From: Betaproteobacteria bacterium
GTDB taxonomy: Bacteria > Pseudomonadota > Gammaproteobacteria > Burkholderiales > SG8-39
Length of the DNA stretch: 64,000 nucleotides
NCBI GenBank assembly: GCA_031391405.1
Contig: JANMUI010000779.1
Location: 2,127-66,126 of the forward strand
Direction of reading: 5' to 3'
Shown here: positions 4,177 to 17,018 of the stretch, one piece after another
Numbering within the stretch: position 1 is the first letter of the stretch
Layout of the letters: the number at the start of each line of letters is the position of its first letter
The notes under the pieces: model-generated
Told to the model about the DNA's origin: nothing
What the model saw: only the letters and a program-made list of their open reading frames with translations
Database searches by the model: none
Program-made: the position numbers and the translations under genes

Positions 4177-6363
4177 CTATTTGGAAGTCACTTTGGGTCG
4201 AGGCGTCGTCGGCACGTCGCGCGACGACCACTTCTCCAATATCGTGGCCAAGGCTTTCTTGGTCATCGGTTTGCTCAGGAAATCATCCATGCCGGCACTG
4301 GTGCAGGCGTTTTGGTAGTCGGTGAATGCGTGTGCCGTCAAAGCGATGATTATCTGGCGATACCCGCTGCCTGCCTCATGCTTGCGTATCTCGCGCGTGG
4401 CCTCGAGCCCGTCCATCACCGGCATCTGACCATCCATGAGCACGAGGGCGAAGCGCCGCTGCCGGCATAGGGCAACCGCTTCTTCCCCGTTGCCGACTAC
4501 TGTGACACGCGCACCGAGCGATTCGAGCATCCCCGTGACGACCCGCGCATTCACGGTATTGTCCTCGGCGACCAACACGTCGATCGCGCCCTCTGCGCCC
4601 ACTGCGTCTTCCTGCCCGTCGACCGTAGCGGGAGCGGTGGGTCGCCTATCCGCAGTTGCATCGCTCTTAACCGCACCGCCTGACGTGGATTTCGCAGGCG
4701 CGGCGGTCGAACTGAGAACGCGCTGCGTCGAGACTATCGGGCGCTTGAGGGCATCTTTTCCAACCGGCGCTGCGTTGAACGATGCCTTCGTCCCGATCGG
4801 GAGCCGGACGGCAAACCAGAACGTCGAACCGCGGCCGAGTGCACTTTCCACGGCGAGCTCACCGTCGAAGAGGCTGACGATCCGGCTCGAGATGGCAAGC
4901 CCCAATCCCGTCCCGCTGTATGCACGGGTCATGCTGCCATCGGCTTGAGAGAACGCCTGAAAAATCTCGCGCTGCTTGTCCGCTGGGATGCCGATACCGG
5001 TATCGCGCACCGCGAACCGCAGCGCCGTCATCGAATCACTGCCGCCGGTGCGCGTGACCGAGATCGTAATCGAGCCGTGCTCGGTGAACTTAAGCGCGTT
5101 GCCGACAAGATTGATCAGCACCTGCCTGAGCCTGAGCGGATCATCTTTGACTACCGCGGGTACCTCGGGTCCCACTTGGGCGTTGAGCGCCAGACCGATC
5201 GCACGTGCGCCCTCGGTGAACATGTCGGTGATGCTATGAATAAGGTCTCGGACTGCGAACTCGACCGAGGCGAGCTCGATCCGGCCCGCTTCGATCTTCG
5301 AGAAATCCAGGATGTCATTGATGGCACCAAGCAGGGTCACGCCCGAGGAGTGGATCGTCTCGGCCAACTTGCGCTGGCGCTCCTCGAGGTCGGAGTCGAG
5401 CAGTAGCTCGGCCATGCCGAGCACGCCATTCATCGGGGTGCGGATCTCATGACTCATATTCGCCAGGAACTGCGACTTGAGCTTGTTCGCCGCTTCGGCT
5501 GTTTCCTTCGCGAGCTTGAGCTCCTGCGTGCGCTTCTCGACTTTGGTCTCGAGGTTCGATTGATAGGCAAGCACTTCGGTGCGCGATTCGCGCAGCCGCA
5601 CCGCCATTTGATTGAATGCCGCGGAGAGATCCTGCAACTCGTCGCGCGTCTTCAAGGTTACGATTGCGTCAAGATTGCCTTGGGCGATCGCGCGCGTCGC
5701 CTTGGCGAGCTGATCGATCGGCGCGACCAGCCGTCGCGTGAACCAGACGACGATCACGCTGCCGAGCAAGATCACGAGAAGCGCGCTGACCCCTACGACC
5801 GCGAGGAAGTTCAGGAACTGGTCGCGGATTCGCACCTCGCTTACCGCTACACGCACGTAGCCATCGATCACCAGGGGTGCTGCCATCGCCTCCCGCGCGG
5901 TGGGCGCAGCGTCGTTGGGGGCGCCCGCCTTGGGGCTTCTGACCGGCACGATAATTTCGTGATAGCGCACGCCGCTGGCAGTCACGCCGGCCATGGTCTG
6001 GTGCGAAACTGCACCGGTTGGCCAAGACTTTGGCGCTTGTTGGGACGAAAATCCCTCGCGGGGGCCCGACGCTGTTACTACTTGACCTACTGCGTTGTAA
6101 AGCGCTACGTAGATCACATCGGATTGCTGTGCCGCCGAGCGGACTATGAGGAGTGGCTCCGAGCGCGCCTCGCCCGACAGGTGCGGTCCGCTCAGTTGCG
6201 CCACCATGCGTGCGAGCTTGGTGGCCTGACCGATAAGTTGTGCTCGTCCTTCTTGGAGCTCCGTGTACACCGAGACGGTCCCAACGCCTAGTGCCGCCAG
6301 CAGCGACAGGGCGGCGAACAACAGTCGCAGCTTCAACTCTATGCGCATTGTGCGATTGGCCAT
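4177..6363 (-). CDS. HAMP-containing hybrid sensor histidine kinase with C-terminal REC
   Basis: ATG at 6363 ([11 protein letters not shown]) lies 4 nt after the stop of the upstream gene; extending to 6555 would overlap that gene. Architecture is TM, periplasmic region, TM, then HAMP ([18 protein letters not shown]). H-box [10 protein letters not shown]; HATPase DTGIGI and GTGLGL; REC ([19 protein letters not shown]). Confidence 0.9.
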
Positions 6364-6367
6364 GGCG

Positions 6368-7933
6368 TTACCCCGCACTCGATTCTGCGGCCGCGGTATC
6401 CGCGGCGGTCGCGTGCGTTTCTTGGTCCTGCTCGACCGATTCGCCAGCCCGGCAGACGCGATTGCGCCCCCCACGTTTGGCGCGGTACAGCGCCTGGTCA
6501 GCCGCCTCGATGGCCTGAACAACGCCGGTCGTGTCATCAAGCGTTGCCACACCAAGGCTGGCCGTAACGTGGAATCCAGGTATTTCCCGAATGGCGGGCC
6601 CGCACTGCTCGTCGATCGCTCGCCTTATCCGCTCGGCGACGATGGCTGCCTGCGCGAGGTCGGCGTTCGGCAAGCCGACGCAGAACTCTTCACCCCCATA
6701 GCGGCAGATCACGTCTTTGGTGCGCGATGCCGTCACGAGCTTCTTCGCGACTTCCTGAATTACACGATCACCTGTCGCGTGCCCGTACGTGTCATTGACC
6801 GATTTGAAGCGGTCGATGTCGAGGATCAAGAAGCTGAGCGGCGTCCCGCCTCGCCTCGACTCCACCAGCGCCGCCTCCATCTGCTCGAAGAATGCGCGCC
6901 GGTTGAGACATCCGGTGAGAGAGTCGCGGGTCGCCAGGCGCTCAAGCGCCTCGTTCTTCTGTGCGATCTCGTCGCGCGAAATGGCAAGCTCGACCAGCGT
7001 TTCGCGCAGCCGCTCGTTCGAGCGGTGCAGCTCGGTGACATCGTTCATGGTCACCATGCAACCTCGCACGGAGCCGCCGGGATCTCCAATCGGCGCGCAA
7101 TTGATGATGAGTTTCCTGCTGATACCGGAATCCGTTGCGATCTCGATCTCGTGCCCCATCGTCGGCACTTGTTCGATCATCGTTTGTACCCAAGGATGGC
7201 GGTGTGAATCGTCGGGCAGGTATTCGGCCAACCAGTGGAGCGTCGAGAGGCGCTTGCCGGTCAGATCGAGGCCGTCATTACCGTGCAAGGCGCGAAACGC
7301 ATTGTTCGCAAGTAGGATGCGCCCCCGCGAGTCGAGCAGTACCACCGCCTCGGCCATGACGTCGTAGGCAAGGCGCACGCGCTCCGGAATGACTGCGGAA
7401 GGATCCAGTCGAAGCAACGCGCGCCGCATGTAGAGCCAATAGACGAGTATGCCTCCCAGCGAAACGAACAAGATCGTGATCCAGAGCGGCTCGGTCAGCG
7501 CGCGGCGGAACGCGTTCCGCGGGTCCGGAACGTAGGTCATCTCGAACGTGCCCCAGCGATCCGTTCCGAACGTAAGGGGCACGACCACGTGGGTCAAGGT
7601 GGAGCGGTCATTGCGCGTTTCTGACCAGGCATCCTCATGGTCTCCAGCCTGGGCCACCAACGTCTGATCGGCGCGACGCACCGCAATGGAGCGCACTTCG
7701 TTGCTGCGCTGCCGCAGCGCCTCCAGGGATTGCTCCAGTGCGAGACGGTCGCCGAATTGCATCAGCGTGGCCACTTGCACGGCCATGCCCTCGCTCACCG
7801 ACTTCCGCACCTTCATCATCTGCGATGTGCGGTCGGGCAATACATTGAAGACGGTATCGGCGATGACGATCAGGAAGTTGGTCAGGAAGACCAATCCCAA
7901 GGTGATCTGCAGGGTGGGGCCGATGCGTCTCAC
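6368..7933 (-). CDS. Membrane-bound PAS-GGDEF diguanylate cyclase
   Basis: GTG start at 7933 overlaps the stop of the upstream small ORF (GTGA). Two TM segments flank a ~120-aa periplasmic region, followed by a PAS-like segment. GGEEF is at 6683..6697, with an RxxD I-site (RTKD) five residues upstream. Confidence 0.9.
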
Positions 7934-8301
7934 GCTCGACTCACGGGCCTGTGAATGTCCGCAGCGCGTTCATCGAGCACCATGGCGGCGGCCTGCTCCT
8001 CCAACTCGGCCTGATCGCCGTGCGAGGCATTCGGGATGCGCGCTGGGGGTGGCTCGTCCTCCTCTTCGCGCTCCACGATCGCCAGCAAGTCCACATGCCG
8101 CCAGATCGGCAGGCCCATCACCAGCAGCGAGGTCCAGCCGCTCGAGCGCACCAACCACAACAGCGCACCTGCGACCAGCACTGAGCTGGCCAACCATAGC
8201 GGGTCATTTGTCAATCCTTCGCGCTCGCTCGAATGATTGTGTCGCCAATGGACTCCGACGGTTTGCGCCACCAGGGGCCGCGGCCAGCGGATCGTTGCCA
8301 T
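7930..8301 (-). CDS. Small membrane protein with acidic C-terminal tail (hypothetical)
   Basis: ATG at 8301 overlaps the 3' end of the giant gene by 98 nt; an in-frame TTG at 8214 is an alternative start. Hydrophobic stretch LWLASSVLVAGALLWLV...WTSLLVMGLPIW is followed by EREEEDEPPP...AELEEQ. The stop overlaps the GTG start of the cyclase gene. I see no recognisable family. Confidence 0.5.
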   Translation of the reverse strand: MATIRWPRPLVAQTVGVHWRHNHSSEREGLTNDPLWLASSVLVAGALLWLVRSSGWTSLLVMGLPIWRHVDLLAIVEREEEDEPPPARIPNASHGDQAELEEQAAAMVLDERAADIHRPVSRA

Positions 8302-11251
8302 CTGTTGGGACCGGCGCGCCGATCAACGCGTCACCCGAGTCTCCGCTCGACGCACTGCTCACTGTCGGACCAACCGTTGTGGTTGGGCCGACTACGGCGG
8401 CCAAGGCCGTACTGCTCAGGCTCTCGGCAGTGCCCTGCGCATCGGTGTAACCCACGATCACCCGTATCTGATCGCCCACGTCGGTGGCGGTGAGCAAATA
8501 GATTGACGCAGTGGCCCCGCTCAGGTTGATCCAAGTCACGCCATCGGCGGAGCGCTGCCATTGGAAGCTGACGGCGCTCAGACCGTCAGCGTCGCCAATG
8601 GTGGAAGTGTCCGCGCTGAGCGATTGCGCTTCGGTGGCTGTGCCAATGAGGGCAACCGCACCGGTGGGCGCATCGTTGACGTTGGCGACCGCTGCGGTTT
8701 GGGCACTGGTGAGCGGGCCTTCGGGCGTACCCTGTCCATCGGTGTAGCGCACCTGTACCGAAATCTGCGTGCCGACATCGGCGTCTCCTAACGTGAAGGT
8801 GTTAGCCGTCGCACCCCCAATCGCGATCCCGTTCCTCAACCACTGGTAGCTGAAGACGCCTACGCCATCGACATCCGCGATGCCCGCGGAGGTAGCCGTC
8901 AAGATCTGGTCTTCGCTCACGGTTCCAGTAATCGTTGGCATCCCGGCAGGCGCATCATTGACCGCTGTCACATTGACGGTGAGCGTGTTGGGCGCGGCGT
9001 CGAACGCATTCGACTGATCGCGCACGCTGAAGGTGAAGCTCGCGTAGCCCGCGCCGGTGGCATTCGCGGCCGGCGTGAACACCAGATTGCCCGCGGCGAG
9101 CTGAGCAGTGGTGATCACGTCGCCCGCGTTCACTGCAACGCCTGACAACGTGAGTGAACCCGCGACCGGAACCGAATCGATACGCACCGCTAAGATGCTG
9201 TCGCCCGCGTCCACGTCGGTGAAGCCGAAGGTGGCCGAGGCGAAGGTGTAGGCGGTGTCTTCGTTCGTCGTGACGGTGGCGTTGGTGCCCGCGGGCGCAT
9301 CGTTCACCGCGGTCACATCCACCGTCAACGTGTTCGGCGCGGCGTCATACACACTCGACTGATCGCGCACGCTGAAGGTGAAGCTCGCGTAGCCCGCGCC
9401 GTTGGCATTGGCCGCGGGCGTGAAGACGAGGTTGCCGGCGGCGAGCTGCGCGGCCGTGACCACCTGCCCGGCCGAGACCGCCGCACCGGAGAGCGTGAGC
9501 GAACCCGCGCCCGGAACCGAGTCGATGCGCACCGCCGAGAGGCTGTCACCCGCATCCACGTCGGTGAAGCCGAAGGTGGCGGCAGAGAAGGTGTAGGCGG
9601 TGTCTTCGTTGGTCGTGACGGTGGCGTTGGTGCCGGCGGGCGCGTCGTTCACGGCGGTGCCAGTCATCGCCTTGCTGCCGGTCACGGCCGCCGCGACGCT
9701 GACGCTGGTGGCGATGGTGAAGTTGCCGTTGAAATTGGACGCTGGGTTGAACGTCACGCCGGCCAGCAGGGTGTTGACGTTGGCCAGGGCGCCGCTGGCG
9801 GTCCACACGCCGGTGCCGGCGACATATGTGGAGGTCACCGCACCGGAGGTGGCGGTACTCAGGCTGCCGGCGGCGGTGTTGGACAGGGTCAAGGTCGCCG
9901 TGACGCTGGCGCTGTCGACGTCGCTGATCACGATGTCGGTCAGGTTCAGCGCGGTGTCTTCGGTATAGGTTTGGGCCGCACTCAGATTGGTGGCGCTGGG
10001 CGCGGCGTTGGTAGACTCGATCAGGCGAAACGCCATGTCCTTCGAGCCATCGTCCGTGCCATCGCCGGGGTTGATCTTGGCGCCGGTCGTGTAGGTGCCC
10101 GAATCGTGTACGCCGACATACACCTTGCCACCGTCCGTGCTGCTTTCGATGCGAATGAAATAGTTCTGGTTGTCATTCAGCGTCGCGGTGCTGCTCAGGC
10201 TGATCGTTACCCACGCCTCGGTGGTTCCCAGACTCGAGCTCGCGATCGTTCCGCTGGCGATGATCGCGCCGTTGTAGGTCGAGCGCAACGACACGGTGAT
10301 GTTCTGCGCCGAGGTATCGCTGGCACCGTAGAGCACCAGGCCGATCTTGTCGACGGTGTAAGTCGCCGTCGGGCTGTCGTACCGAACCTTCATGATCTGC
10401 GGCTGACTCGACTTGACCTCGTACGCTTGGTCGCCCATGTTGCCAAACGTGGGCTCGTACGAGTGGATCGTGGTGTCGGCCAACAGGCCAAGCCACTCGT
10501 GTTGTGCCTCAGCGCTCACGGCCACGCCCGTCTCGATGCTTCCCTGCGAAATCTCCAGCTGCCAGTCACCGCCCAGCGACTCGTGCCCGGTCGCATCGAC
10601 ACTTGCCGCGACGTCCGCACCCGTCAGGCGCGCGAGGTGTTCCACGAATGCTTGCCCGGCCGTGCCCTGCGCCACGTCGCAACCATAGATCAGCAGGTCG
10701 GCATCGGCGCTCAGCGCCTCGCGCCAGCTCTGCAGCTCGGTGGCGCGGGCCTCCAGCGCACTCGAGTCGAGCGTCGTGTTTCCGAGTTGCAGCAGCCCGG
10801 GTCGGCCGTGCGAGACGATGTGGATCGCGGCAACATCCTTCTGGTCAGCGAGCGCTTCGTTGATCTGCGCGATCCCATCGCGACTCGCGTCGATGAGAAT
10901 GATCTCTATGGTGCGTTCGCTGCGGGCATTGGCGGTGATATCCGCGACGAGCTGTTCGGCGTTCGGTATGCGTGCATCGACGAACACGATCTCGCGGGAG
11001 CGCTCTTCCTGCAATGAGAAGACTGCGAGCGAGGCGTGCTGAGCATTGACGGTGCTCTCATCGATTTGACGCACCTCACCTTGGAGGGCAGCTTCCGGGG
11101 CAGGCGCGGCGACCGGATTGAGATCTCCCGAATACAGAATGCGCGGCTCGAGCTCCTCGATGGTGGCCGAGGGCGCCTCCTCAGCGTTGGGGCGCCCCAG
11201 GTTCTTCAGCCAGCGGAAAATGCCCATACCATTCTCTCCGCGTCGTGTCAT
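8204..11251 (-). CDS. Giant DUF4347-type N-domain / cadherin-like repeat surface protein (putative adhesin)
   Basis: ATG at 11251 overlaps the stop of the upstream adaptor (ATGA). An alternative ATG at 11227 has GGAGAG upstream. N-terminal LEPRILYSG motif at 11126..11152. DUF4347-like block (EIVFVDARIPN...IHIVSHGRPG...LLIYGCDVAQG...GGDWQLE). A beta-rich middle domain follows, then repeated VNDAP...FTDVD...GYASFTFSVRD modules and two FQW/YQW...GAT...DVG...YTD.QGT modules. No Sec-type signal peptide and no GGxGxD RTX repeats are evident. Confidence 0.85.
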   Translation of the reverse strand: MTRRGENGMGIFRWLKNLGRPNAEEAPSATIEELEPRILYSGDLNPVAAPAPEAALQGEVRQIDESTVNAQHASLAVFSLQEERSREIVFVDARIPNAEQLVADITANARSERTIEIILIDASRDGIAQINEALADQKDVAAIHIVSHGRPGLLQLGNTTLDSSALEARATELQSWREALSADADLLIYGCDVAQGTAGQAFVEHLARLTGADVAASVDATGHESLGGDWQLEISQGSIETGVAVSAEAQHEWLGLLADTTIHSYEPTFGNMGDQAYEVKSSQPQIMKVRYDSPTATYTVDKIGLVLYGASDTSAQNITVSLRSTYNGAIIASGTIASSSLGTTEAWVTISLSSTATLNDNQNYFIRIESSTDGGKVYVGVHDSGTYTTGAKINPGDGTDDGSKDMAFRLIESTNAAPSATNLSAAQTYTEDTALNLTDIVISDVDSASVTATLTLSNTAAGSLSTATSGAVTSTYVAGTGVWTASGALANVNTLLAGVTFNPASNFNGNFTIATSVSVAAAVTGSKAMTGTAVNDAPAGTNATVTTNEDTAYTFSAATFGFTDVDAGDSLSAVRIDSVPGAGSLTLSGAAVSAGQVVTAAQLAAGNLVFTPAANANGAGYASFTFSVRDQSSVYDAAPNTLTVDVTAVNDAPAGTNATVTTNEDTAYTFASATFGFTDVDAGDSILAVRIDSVPVAGSLTLSGVAVNAGDVITTAQLAAGNLVFTPAANATGAGYASFTFSVRDQSNAFDAAPNTLTVNVTAVNDAPAGMPTITGTVSEDQILTATSAGIADVDGVGVFSYQWLRNGIAIGGATANTFTLGDADVGTQISVQVRYTDGQGTPEGPLTSAQTAAVANVNDAPTGAVALIGTATEAQSLSADTSTIGDADGLSAVSFQWQRSADGVTWINLSGATASIYLLTATDVGDQIRVIVGYTDAQGTAESLSSTALAAVVGPTTTVGPTVSSASSGDSGDALIGAPVPTDGNDPLAAAPGGANRRSPLATQSFERARRIDK
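8969..9658 (-). repeat. Two near-identical tandem 345-bp (115-codon) coding repeats inside the giant gene
   Basis: TAVNDAPAGTNATVTTNEDTAYTF... recurs at protein residues 570, 685 and 800. The DNA of 8969..9313 and 9314..9658 aligns with only scattered substitutions. Confidence 0.85.
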
Positions 11252-12309
11252 TTCGCGGCGACGGGTCGCAGCGACGAATGCGCAGGGAGGGCGCCCGACG
11301 TGGCGCGAGCGCCTGATGTTGGGGCGGCTGTCTCGGGCAATTTCAGTCCCAGGTCGACCTTGCATCGCAGCCCGGCGGGCAAGGCGGCGTCGGGATTGGG
11401 CAGCTCGAGACGTACGCGAAACGTACTGCTCGCCGCATCGATGACGCGATCGACGGTCTTGACCGTGGCGGTGCGTTCTTGCCGGTCCAGCAACTCGGGG
11501 ACGACAGTCGCCTTCTGGCCCGCCTTCACCTGCCCGAACGCGGTCGCCGGCACGAGCACGTCGACGCGCAGCGGATTGATGCTGGCGATGCGCATCACCG
11601 GTTTGTCGTCGACGCGCTCTCCCACCGATGCGAAGCGATCCACCACCACACCGGAAATCGGCGCGCGGATGGTGCGCATGTTCAACTGCGCGACCGCGAG
11701 GTCGACTTCCTTTGTCGCCGCCGTCCGCTTCTCCCGGACCTGGTCCGTGCGCCCTTCCGCAACCTGCACCTCGGTGCGCTGTTTGTCCAGATAGGTCTGC
11801 GAGACGAAGCTCTTCTCGTACAACTCGTTGGCACGGCCGAGCTCGCGGTGCGCAAACGCCCGCGAGCTTTGCGCGGCAGCAAGCTCACCGGCCTGCGCGG
11901 CACGCTCACGGGCAAGGGCAAGCGATGCGCGTTCGACGTCGGCATGCAATTGCGCGACGACTTGGCCCTGCTTCACGATGTCCCCGCGTTCGGCCCAAAG
12001 CCGCTCGATCACCCCGACGAGCGCGAGCGCCACGCCCAATAAGGAGGGCGTCAATCCGCGACTGCGTAACATCCGCTGCACTCGCGCTACCGAATCCGAC
12101 CAAGACCGCGCGGACCCCTGGCTGAAACGGGTCCGCGCGTTCGCGAGCGATCGCGACACGGGCCGCGGCAACCGACGGGATTCAGCAGCCGAACAGGCGT
12201 CACCCATTAACCGCGCCAAACCGTGAAGCCGGCCGTGCGAGTCGTCGACTTCCCGCTCGGGATATGCGCTCCAGACGAGTCCGGGAGAAGGGAGTGTCCG
12301 TGCGCTCAT
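11248..12309 (-). CDS. HlyD-family periplasmic adaptor (membrane fusion protein-like)
   Basis: ATG at 12309 overlaps the stop of the upstream gene (ATGA). Arg-rich cytoplasmic N-terminus, one TM (LTPSLLGVALALVGVI), then GDIVKQGQVVAQL, a coiled coil, RTIRAPISGVVVDRFASVGERV and a beta-barrel segment. Confidence 0.8.
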   Translation of the reverse strand: MSARTLPSPGLVWSAYPEREVDDSHGRLHGLARLMGDACSAAESRRLPRPVSRSLANARTRFSQGSARSWSDSVARVQRMLRSRGLTPSLLGVALALVGVIERLWAERGDIVKQGQVVAQLHADVERASLALARERAAQAGELAAAQSSRAFAHRELGRANELYEKSFVSQTYLDKQRTEVQVAEGRTDQVREKRTAATKEVDLAVAQLNMRTIRAPISGVVVDRFASVGERVDDKPVMRIASINPLRVDVLVPATAFGQVKAGQKATVVPELLDRQERTATVKTVDRVIDAASSTFRVRLELPNPDAALPAGLRCKVDLGLKLPETAAPTSGARATSGALPAHSSLRPVAAK

Positions 12310-14468
12310 CGCTCGAAATGCCGCAAGAAGGTGCGTCGCGTGAGCAGCTGCAGCTGTTGGGCAAGCGTTGCTTCACCGTGACGAAAAGTTACGAGCACGC
12401 GCACGCCAATGGGCGCCGCCATGGCATGGGCCAACCGCAGATCGAATTGGAACCAGGCCTCGAGCGCGGTCTTCCCGCTCTGATCGCTGGAATCGGTGGC
12501 GATGCTGCCGCCGCCCGGCTCACCCATCGCCTCGCTCGGGAGCTCACGTGCCGCCTGTGGAATCTCTCGCTCGATGCGAGCGCTATGTGCGGCCCCGATC
12601 TCGTTTGCGAGACGGACATGGATCTCACCAGGCCGCTCGCGCACCAGCGCCACATCTTCGTTGCGCACAAGCACGCGCACGAGCGGGGCGTCCTGGACGA
12701 GGACGTGACCGAACACCTCACCTTGTTCGACGAATCGGCCGGGGGCATCCTGGGCGCGGTCCAGCGCAGCCGCCCCGCTGCGTTCCGCCCGCACGCTCAG
12801 CGCCTCGTTCTTTTGCTGGAGTCGCCGCTGCTCAGAACGCAACTGGTCGATCTTGTCAGGGAGCACTGCGACGCGCATCGGTTCTGTTTCGTATCGCACC
12901 GCGCGCTCGACGGCGTGCTGCTTGAGCGAGGCGCTGACGCGCTCGAGGTCGACCGGAAGCTGATCGTTCGCAAGTTGTGCAATCACCGCGCCCCCGGAAA
13001 CGGGTTCGCCATCGCGCGCCTCAAGTTTTTCGATGAACCCTTCCACGCCCGCGCGTACCGTTGCATCGTCGGGGAGCCAGACGATTCCCGGCGCGTAAGT
13101 CACTTGCGGCAGCGGTACGGCGAAGACCGCGCCGACGACGGCCGTCAAGAGGGCGAGACCGAGGGCGACGGCGCGCCCACGCTGACCGACCAGCTCGCGC
13201 GAATCGACCATATAGACGAGCGCCCGCAATACCGGCCATACGATCAGCAGAACGGCACCAATCGCTGCGACAGAGAGCGCTGTGGCGGCATTGAACTGCG
13301 CGATCACCAGCACGAAGAACGCGAACAGCAGGCACCGATAAACCCACGCGAGCGGCGCATACAGGATGAGCCAAGGGCGCTCGCCGTACTCGAGCGCCGG
13401 TGCGCCGATGCGTCGCACGCCGATGAGGTGCCGCTTCGCCAGATGACGCCAATAGGTGGTGCTGCGTGCCGCGAGATTGGGCAACTCGAAGAGGTCGCAC
13501 AGCACGAAGTAGCCATCGAATCGGAGCAAGGGATTGCCGTTGACCAGCAATGTGGAGACACCCGCTGTGAGCGCCACTGCGAAAGCGAGATCACGAAGCC
13601 ATCCGCCGTCGGCCGCGAGCCACACGACGAGCGCCACAGCGGCGATCACCAGCTCGACCATGATGCCGGCTGCGGCGACTGCCGCGCGCTCCCACTTTTC
13701 GGGGAATGCCGTGGACGCCGAAGCGTCCACATACGGCACCGGCGTCAGGAAGAGCAAGGTCACGCCCATTTCGCGTACATCCCCACCGAACGCTTTGACT
13801 GCGAACGCGTGGCCGAGCTCATGGAGGACCTTGATACAGGGATAGGCGATCCATAACGCGAGGAGCATGCCGGTCGTTGGCAGCTGAGCGGCCGCGAAAG
13901 CGGAGAGCTCGCGTGCGTTGATCATCCAGAGCAGGAGGCCAAGCAGCGCCGTGAGCGTGAACACCACGGCAGCGCCTCGGCTATACATCCAGCGTACATA
14001 GCCCACGGTGTGCGAAATGAACGTGTCCGGATCCCACAGCGGGACACGAAACGCGAGCGGATTGAGGGCGCTCTCCCCACGGCGGCGGCGGGACCGATCG
14101 CCGCGTTTGACGATCGCCGCGGCGTCCGGTGTAACGTCGGCCACGATGAGATTCGCCTCGAACGCCTGGCTGAGGATGCGAATGGCCTCACCTTGCGAAA
14201 TTGCGTGTTCGCCATCGATCTTGACGCGCGCGTTCCATACCTCGTCGACCGTCCGCTGCCCGTCGCAGGAGGCGACCAGACGGTATGCCAGCTGGTTGAA
14301 TCGATGGTGGCGTCCGGAAGCGGGATCGGAGAAGACGTACCACCGTGCGCCGCGAACGATCTGTCGGCTGACCTTGACGCCCGGGCGGACACGCGGACGT
14401 AACTGGGCGACCCGGTACCAGTCCGGAGAGTGGAGGGATGCACGCCTGTTCACGCGAGCGCTCTCCAC
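12306..14468 (-). CDS. Fusion protein: PqqD-like N-domain + M50 (site-2-type) zinc metalloprotease + C-terminal HlyD-like adaptor region
   Basis: GTG at 14468, or GTG at 14453 forming GTGA with the upstream stop. N-terminal segment is RWYVFSDPASGRHHRFNQLAYRLVASCDGQRTVDEVW. HELGH at 13809..13823, plus a second M50 motif GNPLLRFDGY, with multiple TM helices. The C-terminal 260 aa carry a lipoyl-like hairpin, a coiled coil and a barrel. Confidence 0.85.
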   Translation of the reverse strand: MESARVNRRASLHSPDWYRVAQLRPRVRPGVKVSRQIVRGARWYVFSDPASGRHHRFNQLAYRLVASCDGQRTVDEVWNARVKIDGEHAISQGEAIRILSQAFEANLIVADVTPDAAAIVKRGDRSRRRRGESALNPLAFRVPLWDPDTFISHTVGYVRWMYSRGAAVVFTLTALLGLLLWMINARELSAFAAAQLPTTGMLLALWIAYPCIKVLHELGHAFAVKAFGGDVREMGVTLLFLTPVPYVDASASTAFPEKWERAAVAAAGIMVELVIAAVALVVWLAADGGWLRDLAFAVALTAGVSTLLVNGNPLLRFDGYFVLCDLFELPNLAARSTTYWRHLAKRHLIGVRRIGAPALEYGERPWLILYAPLAWVYRCLLFAFFVLVIAQFNAATALSVAAIGAVLLIVWPVLRALVYMVDSRELVGQRGRAVALGLALLTAVVGAVFAVPLPQVTYAPGIVWLPDDATVRAGVEGFIEKLEARDGEPVSGGAVIAQLANDQLPVDLERVSASLKQHAVERAVRYETEPMRVAVLPDKIDQLRSEQRRLQQKNEALSVRAERSGAAALDRAQDAPGRFVEQGEVFGHVLVQDAPLVRVLVRNEDVALVRERPGEIHVRLANEIGAAHSARIEREIPQAARELPSEAMGEPGGGSIATDSSDQSGKTALEAWFQFDLRLAHAMAAPIGVRVLVTFRHGEATLAQQLQLLTRRTFLRHFER

Positions 14469-15949
14469 AGCATGCGGCGCAGCCAGTTGGCGGCACGATG
14501 TGTCCAGATCCCGATGAGCCGCCGCTCCTCGATATCGATCTTCGCCACGCCCTGCAAGCCCGGTCGCAATCCACCAACCTGATCTGCCTCATTGGGTGCG
14601 ACGTGTGCCTCCGCTTCGAAGAAATTCCAGCCGTCGCGCGCCATTGCGATGGGGGCGACGCGGGTGAGTTGCAGGTCGAATGGCCTGGTCGTTTCGGCGG
14701 CGAACAGCACGCGCGCGCGCTGGCCGACGCGAACGGCGCCGACATCCTGCTCATCGACCTCGAGGATCACGCGATATTCATTCGCCGGGGCGACCACCAT
14801 CAGGATTTGCCCGCGCTTGACGGGCGCCCCGATCGATTGGAGCAGATCGCCCTTGATCACGACGCCATCGATGGGCGCCTGGAGGCGAGTGCGTGCGAGG
14901 CGTTGCAGGACCAACCCGAGCTCCGTGCGTGCCTGATCGTGCTTCGCCTTGGCGATCACGATGCTGGCGGCATCGTCCTTGCTCAGCGCTTCGCGATATT
15001 GCTTGTCCAGCTGTGCCATCTCCGCTTCCCACTTGTCCCGCTCGAGCGCAAGGTCACGGTCCTCGAGTGCGGCCAATGCCTGACCGATTTTTACGGCCTG
15101 CCCCGGCCGTACGTGTACGTCGCGGAGGAATCCGTCCACGGGCGCCGCGACGACACGCTCGATTGCACCCTCGATGTGCGCCGGTGCGGTGATGCGAAAG
15201 GTGACCGGCCACATTGCCGCGCCAATCGCCAATGCCAGCATCGCGAGAAAAATAAACTTGCCGGGCGATGATGCGACCCCGTGCAGCCGCTGACCGCGCT
15301 TAGCTAGCAGATCCTCCCAGCGGCGCGCCAACGAATCATCGACCCGATGCTTCAGTGCGAGGACCGGTCCGACGAACAGTGCGACGTCCTGTGCCAGTCG
15401 AACCGCTTCGGCGTTGAATCCCTTTTGACCCTCGAGCAGCACCGCGCCCAGCAGTCGATCGCGATCCGCGATCGGCACGGTGCAGATCGCTGCGCGCGCG
15501 CTGCTCTCCGAGAGGCGCGCATGAGCGAGGGTTACCTTTGGCGAGGACCCCTGCGGCGTTGGATGGACGATGGTCGTCCGCTGATCGAGTGACTCCTCCA
15601 TCGCCGCACCGATGATGCGAACAAGGCTCTGCCGCTCGCGGAAATCCCCGGTATTGGAGATTGCCGCGATCGCGATTCGACCCTTGCGAATAAAGCCAAT
15701 GCTGACGCGATCGCATCCGAGCATCGAGCACAACTCGGTCGTGACGGCGCTTGCCGCCACTTGGAATCGGGCGTGCGAGAGGGCTCGCGCCTGAAGCGCG
15801 AGGACCGTGCCAATCCGCGCCATGCGCTGCTGCGTGCGCGCGGCGGGCGGTGGCTCCCCGGGTGGGCCGGACGCGTGCGGCCGCGGTGAAACGGGCGGCG
15901 CGACGCGCTTGGTCTGGTCGTCGGTGGACGTACTCTCTAGGGCGAGCAA
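14450..15949 (-). CDS. GAF-domain protein fused to HlyD-family adaptor
   Basis: The ORF opens with TTG at 15949; ATG at 15823 (MARIGTVLAL) is an alternative start. GAF-like N-domain (LGCDRVSIGFIRKGR...LLGAVLLEG). TM (FIFLAMLALAIGAAMW), then PVDGFLRDVHVRPGQAVKIGQALAAL, a coiled coil and RLQAPIDGVVIKGDL. Confidence 0.8.
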   Translation of the reverse strand: MLALESTSTDDQTKRVAPPVSPRPHASGPPGEPPPAARTQQRMARIGTVLALQARALSHARFQVAASAVTTELCSMLGCDRVSIGFIRKGRIAIAAISNTGDFRERQSLVRIIGAAMEESLDQRTTIVHPTPQGSSPKVTLAHARLSESSARAAICTVPIADRDRLLGAVLLEGQKGFNAEAVRLAQDVALFVGPVLALKHRVDDSLARRWEDLLAKRGQRLHGVASSPGKFIFLAMLALAIGAAMWPVTFRITAPAHIEGAIERVVAAPVDGFLRDVHVRPGQAVKIGQALAALEDRDLALERDKWEAEMAQLDKQYREALSKDDAASIVIAKAKHDQARTELGLVLQRLARTRLQAPIDGVVIKGDLLQSIGAPVKRGQILMVVAPANEYRVILEVDEQDVGAVRVGQRARVLFAAETTRPFDLQLTRVAPIAMARDGWNFFEAEAHVAPNEADQVGGLRPGLQGVAKIDIEERRLIGIWTHRAANWLRRMLWRALA

Positions 15950-16117
15950 TTTGGGCGTGCGATCTTCCCCGCGATGGCGGGACTCGCCCGTTGGCCTCCC
16001 TATTCGACCCGGGCCGTTGGGCAGGCGGTGTCGCGACTAAGGGTAATCGGGGTGCCCAATTCGGAGCGCGCGCGGTCGATCGCATCCGTCCGTGATCGAA
16101 CTCACGCTCGCACGGCG

Positions 16118-16190
16118 GGCTTCGACAAGCCTGTCCGGAGCCCTTCGACAGGCTCAGGACACGCTTGTCGAAAGGCTCAGCCCGAACGGA
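16118..16190. repeat. REP-like intergenic palindromic element
   Basis: The element reads cttcgacaagcctgtccggagcccttcgacaggctcaggacacgcttgtcgaaaggctcagcccgaacgg. It contains the inverted repeat agcctgtc/gacaggct and repeated ttcgaca(a/g)gc units. It lies in the 349-bp gap upstream of the GAF-HlyD gene. Confidence 0.5.
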
Positions 16191-16298
16191 CTCTCACGGT
16201 CCGATGGGTTGGCTGAGGCAGGTTACTGATCTGGAAGTCGCTGGCCCGCCTCGATTCGTGTCCGATCATCCGGCTGCTGGCGCGGCGCTAGGTCCGGG

Positions 16299-17018
16299 CT
16301 ATGCGAGCCTTCCACTGTCGGGGAGATTGATCTCGTCGAGCCATGCGATGACTTCATCGAGGCTCTTCACGATGTGATCCGGCCGTGCCGATCCGGTCCA
16401 TTCGGCGCCGGAACGATTGACCCAGATTGCTTTGAGTCCGGCGGCTAGCGCACCCTCGACATCGAGCTCGGCATCGTCGCCGATATGCAGAACCTCACCC
16501 GGTTCGCAGCCGAGTCGTTCGCATGCCGCGTGAAACATCCGGATATCGGGTTTGCCGAAACCGAGCTCTGCCGCGGACAACGCGCCGACGAAATGCCGGC
16601 CAAGACCCGTGCGATGAATATCCGCGGTCCCGTTCGATAGCGCGAAGATCGGATACCGCGCACCGAGTGCAAGGAGAGCGGGCATCGCATCGTCGAACAA
16701 CTCGACCTCTTGTCGCGCGGCATCGAACACTGCATACGCTTGATGCGCTTTGGCCGGGTCATCGCCCACCGAAGTCAGTGCATGGGCAATGGCGGTGCGT
16801 CGAACATGCCCGATGTCGCTGCGACGATGGGGTGCCACTTGCGCGATGATCTGGTCGCGCAGGATTCGCATCGTAGCCGGTGGAAAACGCTCGGCAACCG
16901 CCGGTGCATGCGCGAGCATCCACGCCGTTAGTGCGGCTTCGGCTTTCGCGATGACCGGGCCGACCGGCCACAGCGTTTCGTCGAGATCAATGGTGATGGC
17001 GCGAAGGGTGGCGGTCAT
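16299..17018 (-). CDS. HAD-superfamily hydrolase
   Basis: ATG at 17018 overlaps the upstream stop (ATGA). Motif I is ITIDLDETLW; the later motif is HIGDDAELDVEGA. Confidence 0.8.
   Translation of the reverse strand: MTATLRAITIDLDETLWPVGPVIAKAEAALTAWMLAHAPAVAERFPPATMRILRDQIIAQVAPHRRSDIGHVRRTAIAHALTSVGDDPAKAHQAYAVFDAARQEVELFDDAMPALLALGARYPIFALSNGTADIHRTGLGRHFVGALSAAELGFGKPDIRMFHAACERLGCEPGEVLHIGDDAELDVEGALAAGLKAIWVNRSGAEWTGSARPDHIVKSLDEVIAWLDEINLPDSGRLA

Follow-up and report, generated by a model that had tools for sequence, protein, structure and literature searches.

A 64,000-nucleotide stretch of DNA from a Betaproteobacteria bacterium (GenBank contig JANMUI010000779.1, positions 2,127 to 66,126, here called the window) carries three consecutive genes, g1, g2 and g3, each of which encodes a membrane fusion protein (MFP) domain of the HlyD type. 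The three genes belong to a conserved module of four components: a GAF-MFP protein, a protein in which an RRE (recognition element of peptides that ribosomes make and that are modified after translation, RiPPs), an M50 protease and an MFP are fused, a SecA_DEAD ATPase, and an MFP with a signal peptide. A reading of the sequence alone had taken the trio for a self-contained, ligand-gated machine of protease and adaptors with no pump. The absence of a pump instead reflects a recent loss and does not mark a new design without one, because the SecA-like ATPase of the four-gene module was deleted in this genome. The interpretation that we regard as likely is that the window holds a damaged and probably inactive copy of this module, the intact form of which would export proteins with an LEPR-XLL leader, guided by that leader and driven by the SecA-like motor.

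The deletion and the chimeric third gene

The closest long relative of the window locus, L081, comes from a Burkholderiales metagenome-assembled genome and is syntenic, with 84% nucleotide identity. Its genes are arranged in the order HpaB-UbiD-TctC-DUF429-HAD-g1-g2-SecA_DEAD (656 residues)-MFP (298 residues)-DUF4347, and those upstream of g1 are common to the window. The SecA-like protein of L081 matches SecA_DEAD (3e-76), the preprotein cross-linking domain (7e-22) and P-loop_SecA (3e-45). In the nucleotide alignment, collinearity of the window with L081 extends to L081 position 12444 and is restored from 14297 onwards, and about 1.86 kb (~12445-14306 of L081) is absent from the window. A 9-nucleotide microhomology, GTCGG(G/A)GTG, flanks the deletion on both sides. 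The loss arose by illegitimate recombination at this microhomology, and nothing of the ATPase is left after codon ~98.

The deletion is in frame and leaves a single chimeric open reading frame (ORF), g3. Residues 3-100 of g3 align at 70% identity with residues 1-98 of the L081 SecA-like protein (tblastn 5.7e-34), and residues 97-350 correspond to residues 42-295 of the 298-residue L081 MFP. The remnant retains the N-terminal YPER motif that is conserved in the family (SAYPEREVD, window 12250-12290), and the signal peptide of the third MFP (MKRTVSMLIGFVACSHAWSATA..., lipobox region) has been lost. The Arg-rich segment of ~90 residues, formerly read as the cytoplasmic N-terminus of a natural short adaptor, is this SecA_DEAD remnant. 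The assignment of g3 itself as an HlyD/MFP adaptor holds (Pfam HlyD_D23 7e-18; NCBIfam RND_mfp 4e-39, above the cut-off). Since g3 retains SecA-like codons fused to a truncated MFP, the state described as pump-less is a deletion product.

The identical junction is present in L082, a Logan assembly of SRR20217208, which differs from the window by eight single-nucleotide polymorphisms and one 2-bp deletion over 6.46 kb. The 2-bp deletion falls in a GC run (equivalent to window 14719-14720) and shifts the reading frame of the g1 C-terminus, which is either further decay or a sequencing error.

The module and its SecA-like ATPase in relatives

The g2 family comprises at least 3814 clusters at 90% identity, nearly all of about 715 residues, and has members in at least 551 GTDB species. 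Loci with the module come from Burkholderiales, Bradyrhizobium, Nitrospira, Zoogloea, Planctomycetota and further groups. When 80 related loci were fetched and the four module proteins were mapped onto each, an orthologue of g1 was found directly upstream of g2 in essentially all of them. In these relatives g3 does not adjoin g2; it lies about 2 kb past it, and the gap encodes a protein of ~660 residues with SecA motor motifs. A SecA_DEAD gene directly follows g2 in 65 of the 69 loci that have at least 2.1 kb of downstream flank, and the beginning of the gene is visible in every locus with a shorter flank. The trio is thus conserved as a unit, but with a SecA-like motor between g2 and g3, and the idea of a machine without an energizing component is not supported. 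The sequence-only reading had itself named the regular presence of a dedicated pump, lost at this locus, as the outcome that would overturn it. In spirit this is what is found, the pump being a SecA-like motor and not an ABC (ATP-binding cassette) or RND transporter.

The SecA-like proteins of the module are a specialized paralogue, because their match to the SecA models, which have 789 positions, ends at about position 600. They share an (A/S/G)YPER motif ahead of the motor domain (e.g. L081:12151-12450); to our knowledge, canonical SecA has no such motif.

The intact module has been reported before, from genome comparison (Kamneva, Poudel & Ward 2015, PLoS One; PMC4452313). The neighbourhood described there contains SecA_DEAD, GAF-HlyD, M50-HlyD, a further HlyD protein and sometimes an OEP protein, and some modules have parts that are encoded apart. 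The authors suggested that SecA_DEAD takes the place of the ABC ATPase, with the M50 protein as a possible membrane component, and stated that the biological role was completely unknown; their text makes no mention of a PqqD/RRE domain, a substrate or an LEPR motif (PMC4452313). No experimental follow-up of this module was found in the literature. The window has the same order of GAF-HlyD, M50-HlyD and HlyD/biotin-lipoyl genes, and L081 has the full set. In the window, g1 combines GAF with HlyD/biotin-lipoyl domains and g2 combines Peptidase_M50 with HlyD, as in the published module (PMC4452313). The third, separate HlyD/MFP protein is present as g3, though N-terminally truncated, without its signal peptide and fused, and of SecA_DEAD only codons 1 to ~98 remain.

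A TolC-type OEP gene follows g3 in nine Nitrospira loci. In one of these, L053, the OEP gene (14928-16496, Pfam 3.9e-44) is followed by two genes with the LEPR motif described below. No conserved ABC transporter was found in the related loci; an ORF with LSGGQ and Walker A motifs occurs in 3 of the 80 and is not conserved. In the window, neither an ABC transporter nor a TolC/OEP gene was seen among the ORFs scanned with Pfam, a scan that took in some of the window ORFs and was not exhaustive. The earlier statement that the locus encodes neither pump nor TolC therefore agrees with what was scanned, but describes a product of deletion. A second SecA-like copy was not found in the 64-kb window by tblastn.

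Two further features vary among the related loci. A DUF3467 protein of ~114 residues (Pfam 1.7e-19) is encoded beside the module in 20 of the 80 loci (e.g. L053:7538-7882), from Nitrospira, Bradyrhizobium and Alphaproteobacteria. Its gene is mostly on the same strand just upstream of g1, and in Bradyrhizobium it is downstream on the opposite strand. This protein may be a fifth component of the module; no DUF3467 gene was found in the window. In some Burkholderiales and Hydrogenophilales loci (L085, L087), the third MFP is ~440 residues long and has an extra Cds6_C domain.

Domain structure of g1 and g2

Profile searches uphold the GAF, Peptidase_M50 and HlyD/MFP assignments that had been made from the sequence alone, and the peptides on which they were based are present in the three consecutive minus-strand ORFs. 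In g1, the N-terminal GAF domain scores above the Pfam cut-off (1e-8; 36.2 bits against 22.4), and the C-terminal part matches HlyD_3 (2.6e-16), HlyD_D23 (1.9e-13) and Biotin_lipoyl_2 (3.3e-7).

The membrane core of g2 has the features of a site-2 protease. Peptidase_M50 is matched above the gathering cut-off (3.5e-8; 33.5 bits against 27.2), and both the HExxH motif and the third-ligand motif are present. In an alignment of 23 full-length homologues with 46-84% identity, H216, E217 and H220 as well as N310-x-x-P313-x4-D318-G319 are invariant in all 23, so that the M50 core with an intact HELGH is confirmed. Both motifs fall in predicted helices of the AlphaFold model. The C-terminal MFP domain of the window protein is weak in Pfam (HlyD_3 5e-4), yet HlyD_3 is matched by 23 of 23 family members, and in the AlphaFold model (pLDDT 80) this part matches MexA, MacA and AcrA at E~1e-9, as expected for the HlyD-like C-terminus proposed before.

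The N-terminus of g2, which had been called PqqD-like, is weak by sequence and better supported by fold. Pfam PqqD gives E=0.17 for the window protein and matches 13 of the 23 members, at best with 1.2e-4, and an N-terminal family profile searched against the PDB finds PqqD 3g2b at E=0.096, below a spurious flavoprotein match. The fold search with full-length g2 returns MFP structures only and is uninformative on the M50 and RRE parts, hence a separate model of residues 10-125 was built (pLDDT 88.5). It has three β-strands (23-29, 32-39, 44-48) followed by three helices (50-57, 65-79, 83-95), the three-stranded sheet and helices of the winged-helix fold typical of RREs. Its best fold matches in the PDB are RRE proteins, namely TbiB1 and lasso-peptide B1 (leader-bound), TruD, TigE and LynD. 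The model thus supports an RRE fold for the g2 N-terminus, a feature that appears to be new relative to the 2015 description of the module.

Residues 25-410 of g2 also match the NCBIfam model daptide_HExxH (NF041824) at 3.3e-45, with 154.9 bits against an equivalog cut-off of 300, and g2 matches the model of the YydH/LiaK epipeptide protease at 3.7e-9. The daptide peptidase is an RRE fused to an intramembrane site-2 protease, which cleaves the leader of ELExMEAP precursors (PMC10028931).

The candidate cargo

The gene downstream of g3, g4, encodes a protein with an N-terminal LEPRILYS motif that matches NCBIfam LEPR-XLL (NF012209) with 22.7 bits against a cut-off of 17. Pfam matches are DUF4347 (1.5e-58), Cadherin_4 and Cadherin_5. 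The likely start is at 11227 (MGIFRWLK...), where a GGAGAG ribosome-binding site precedes the ATG; the ORF list runs g4 to 11365, as a 1053-residue ORF, and this extension overlaps g3. A hydropathy scan of g4 reveals no Sec signal and no transmembrane or hydrophobic segment, and Pfam finds no HemolysinCabind/RTX match; the conserved signal-like motif is instead N-terminal.

The pattern LE[PSQ]R[IVLM][LM][LMFY][SA][AG] was scanned in all six frames of the related loci, a total of 1.8 million residues. It gives 18 matches in 17 loci, where rough residue frequencies predict ~0.02 by chance. All of these matches lie 15-60 residues past a Met, behind a Lys/Arg-rich stretch, at the beginning of a large ORF beside the module. 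Many of the ORFs exceed 1500 residues, and most directly follow g3 or the OEP gene. The matches come from Burkholderiales, Gammaproteobacteria, Nitrospira and Methylotenera. A looser form of the motif adds four loci, so that an LEPR-type protein is encoded beside the module in ~20 of 82 loci. Among the listed homologues of the g4 N-terminus, 68 of 120 have the motif, and its median position in them is 17.

Sampling in the reverse direction, from DUF4347 proteins on long contigs, places motif-bearing DUF4347 genes directly downstream of a complete module in L085, L087, L089 and L030, and all three motif-less DUF4347 proteins (P0199, P0223, P0239) have no module nearby. The adjacency of module and LEPR protein is frequent and not obligatory, because some motif-bearing DUF4347 genes had no full module within 10 kb. 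The literature on DUF4347 and LEPR-XLL yielded incidental mentions only, and the link of LEPR-XLL cargo to the module appears to be new. The resemblance of the daptide leader ELExMEAP to (E)ELEPRxLYSA is only suggestive.

In Azospirillum thermophilum (L084, CP029356.1, 10001-11221), a DUF4347 protein has the variant LEPRYVFDG and is followed by a cadherin-repeat protein of >5800 residues, with no module within 10 kb. There may be more than one leader variant or more than one route of export.

Gene layout and neighbouring genes

The genes g1 to g4 are arranged head to tail, all on the minus strand (Table 1). The reading frames of g1 and g2 overlap by 19 nucleotides, and the start of g3 overlaps the stop of g2 by four (ATGA). 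Beyond g4 lies a PAS-GGDEF gene, g5, which is followed by two hybrid histidine kinases (4177-6555 and 34-2211), one with HAMP-HisKA-HATPase-REC and the other with PAS-HisKA-HATPase-REC-Hpt architecture. Between g4 and g5 is a minus-strand ORF of 123 residues (7930-8301), possibly spurious or possibly the gene of a small membrane protein, which has a hydrophobic segment, matches no family, overlaps the last part of g4 and adjoins the GGDEF gene at its start.

Table 1. Genes, domains and motifs of the module locus, in window coordinates
Feature	Positions	Strand	Remarks
g1	14450-15949	minus	499 residues; GAF, transmembrane helix and MFP
g1 cytoplasmic GAF domain	~15368-15760	minus	Pfam GAF 1e-8
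g1 single transmembrane helix	~15206-15280	minus	hydrophobic segment at residues 224-242
g1 periplasmic MFP domain	~14513-15205	minus	HlyD_3 and HlyD_D23 matches
g2	12306-14468	minus	720 residues; PqqD/RRE-like, M50 and MFP
g2 PqqD/RRE-like domain	~14133-14396	minus	fold of N-terminal model
g2 M50 site-2-protease membrane core	~13119-14036	minus	Pfam Peptidase_M50
g2 HELGH	13809-13823	minus	in M50 core
g2 NxxPxxxxDG	13512-13541	minus	third zinc-ligand motif
g2 C-terminal MFP domain	12309-13118	minus	HlyD_3 in family; AlphaFold fold matches
g3 ORF	11248-12309	minus	353 residues; SecA_DEAD remnant fused to third MFP
SecA_DEAD remnant, first ~98 codons	12013-12309	minus	70% identity to L081 SecA-like protein
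Deletion junction with microhomology GTCGGGGTG	12010-12019	minus	two blastn segments overlap by 10 nucleotides
g3 proper, third MFP without its first ~41 residues	11248-12012	minus	aligns to L081 MFP
g4	8204-11227	minus	~1007 residues; LEPR leader, DUF4347, cadherin/Ig-like repeats
g4 LEPRILYS leader motif	11129-11152	minus	NCBIfam LEPR-XLL
g4 DUF4347	~10481-10990	minus	Pfam 1.5e-58
g5	6368-7933	minus	membrane PAS-GGDEF diguanylate cyclase; Pfam GGDEF 1.4e-46 and PAS

Proposed mechanism and alternative readings

The intact module would be an exporter that spans the envelope and follows the plan of a type I secretion system (T1SS) with a peptidase, though its parts are different. The cytoplasmic RRE of g2 would bind the N-terminal (E)LEPRxLYSA leader of the neighbouring giant DUF4347/cadherin-repeat proteins, which have no Sec signal, and the SecA-like motor would thread the chain at the expense of ATP. 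The M50 core would form the inner-membrane platform and remove the leader, while the three MFPs together would form the passage through the periplasm to a TolC-type channel. Activity would be gated by the GAF domain of g1 and perhaps also by the diguanylate cyclase encoded nearby. Full-length homologues of g5 (40-42% identity) directly follow the module in L020, L023 and L077, a position that hints at control by cyclic di-GMP (c-di-GMP). The wider proposal, that the intact module is an unrecognized dedicated secretion system of diderm bacteria with a SecA-paralogue motor, an RRE-M50 platform, three MFPs, TolC and LEPR-XLL cargo, is put forward tentatively, as a possibility somewhat short of probable. 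With its motor lost and its third MFP deprived of a signal peptide, the window system is probably inactive or strongly impaired and beginning to decay, and the g1 frameshift of L082 fits incipient decay.

Several observations weigh against this interpretation. Export function, cargo, leader cleavage and channel are all inferred, and we know of no M50 protein that acts as a protein-conducting channel. The evidence for the RRE from sequence is marginal (E 0.1-0.2 for the window protein), and the Foldseek E-values are only ~1e-2. An LEPR-type ORF lies within 10 kb in only about a quarter to a third of the module loci, and the motif-bearing DUF4347 genes of L088 and L090 (P0172, P0237) have no complete module within 10 kb, one of them being near only an MFP and an OEP gene and the other near nothing of the kind. 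In the window, g1, g2 and g4 remain intact ORFs. L050 and L067 are natural three-gene variants in which g3 directly follows g2, with neither a SecA-like gene nor a remnant. As these variants show, a module can have its ATPase gene at another site or lack it, so that the motor can be dispensable. Finally, the junction creates a marginally hydrophobic stretch at g3 residues ~86-104 (window 11990-12060; Kyte-Doolittle score 1.66), in which the hydrophobic run SLLGVALALVGVI is uninterrupted and is preceded by an Arg-rich segment. By means of this stretch the chimera might be held in the membrane, its MFP part lying in the periplasm. At the same place the window has a Val where L081 has a Glu (GEALALVGV), a difference that may be due to chance or may be compensatory and favour membrane anchoring.

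The last three of these observations, together with the modules noted in 2015 to have parts encoded apart (PMC4452313), favour a locus that still functions, with the ATPase supplied in trans by a second SecA_DEAD protein encoded elsewhere in the genome or by the housekeeping SecA and with the chimeric g3 anchored by its junction stretch LTPSLLGVALALVGVIERL in a topology like that of g1. This is unlikely, since the 64-kb window has no second SecA-like copy, the uninterrupted hydrophobic run of only ~13 residues is short for a signal anchor, the g1 frameshift in the sister assembly points to decay, and the specialized SecA-like paralogue is probably not interchangeable with SecA. L050 and L067 could also be cited, along with the lack of any pump gene among the window ORFs that were scanned, for the original idea of a GAF-gated envelope machine of protease and adaptors that never needed an energized transporter; with the ATPase gene in 65 of 69 loci, present in the closest syntenic relative and still represented by 98 codons in g3, that idea is now very improbable. 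Short repeats such as the one at the junction are places where assemblers can collapse sequence, but an absence of the ATPase gene through misassembly of the window has almost negligible probability, given that the independent L082 assembly shares the junction despite its eight substitutions and one 2-bp indel and that the fusion is exactly in frame.

The similarity of g2 to the daptide and YydH/LiaK proteases, and the fact that RRE domains have so far been known only from RiPP pathways, would suit a module for the maturation and export of small RiPP-like peptides, comparable to the daptide RRE-protease fusion, with the giant LEPR-XLL proteins as merely frequent neighbours. This is improbable: the daptide score of g2 is far below the equivalog cut-off, the gene tables of the loci examined list no tailoring enzymes within the module, and clustering of the neighbouring ORFs of at least 90 residues yields no conserved family of short ORFs except the 114-residue DUF3467 protein. 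The sole recurrent leader-like motif sits on giant proteins, and a SecA-type motor with a preprotein cross-linking domain suits the threading of polypeptides. Export of LEPR-XLL proteins by the intact module, with a disabled copy in the window, therefore remains the preferred interpretation.

Comparison with known systems

The module shares several elements with a T1SS composed of a PCAT/HlyB-type ABC transporter, HlyD and TolC, namely MFPs, a putative TolC-type channel, an inner-membrane protease element that is proposed to recognize a leader, an ATPase and, as the likely cargo, a giant repeat adhesin. It differs in that it has no ABC transporter, its ATPase is a SecA paralogue, an M50 metalloprotease stands in place of the C39 cysteine protease, its leader recognition would be by an RRE, it has three different MFPs and not one, and its cargo has no RTX repeats or C-terminal signal. 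Measured against a T1SS, the window has the three MFPs, and the OEP gene that follows g3 in Nitrospira was not found in it; TolC is often encoded elsewhere in the genome. A classical T1SS and a tripartite RND or MFS pump were considered and rejected, no transporter of those classes having been found among the ORFs scanned.

The RRE-plus-M50 architecture of daptide MpaP and of the YydH/LiaK proteases is homologous to the N-terminal part of g2. The RiPP clusters of these proteases have no C-terminal MFP fusion, no SecA-like partner and no GAF-MFP partner, whereas the module has no tailoring enzymes and its putative substrate exceeds 1000 residues. Assignment of the locus as a daptide or RiPP cluster was rejected on the sub-threshold scores, the lack of tailoring genes and the nature of the neighbours, which are MFPs, the SecA-like gene and giant proteins.

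In the Lap system (LapA/LapBCE, LapD/LapG), as here, a giant protein with cadherin/Ig repeats is encoded beside its exporter (a proposed one in the case of the module) and c-di-GMP proteins, and in both a protease acts, or in the module is proposed to act, on the N-terminal region of that protein. The exporter parts differ, no LapD/LapG homologue was seen, and the link of the module to c-di-GMP consists of gene proximity in four loci. The earlier judgement that this set of parts matches no characterized T1SS, tripartite efflux pump or RiPP exporter has held up.

Implications

What looked like a trio without a pump is the product of a deletion, and of the three supposed adaptors one is a chimera that this deletion left behind. 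The module from which it derives is widespread, in genomes of at least 551 species from several phyla, and has been known from comparative genomics since 2015 with no function assigned. The RRE fold on its M50 subunit and its adjacency to LEPR-XLL proteins turn it into a testable hypothesis of secretion. If this hypothesis is correct, the module would be a new export route for giant adhesin-like proteins and would give a function to the orphan annotations LEPR-XLL and DUF4347. It would also be the first case in which an RRE is used to target full-length proteins for secretion, and the window would be a natural knock-out of the secretion system.

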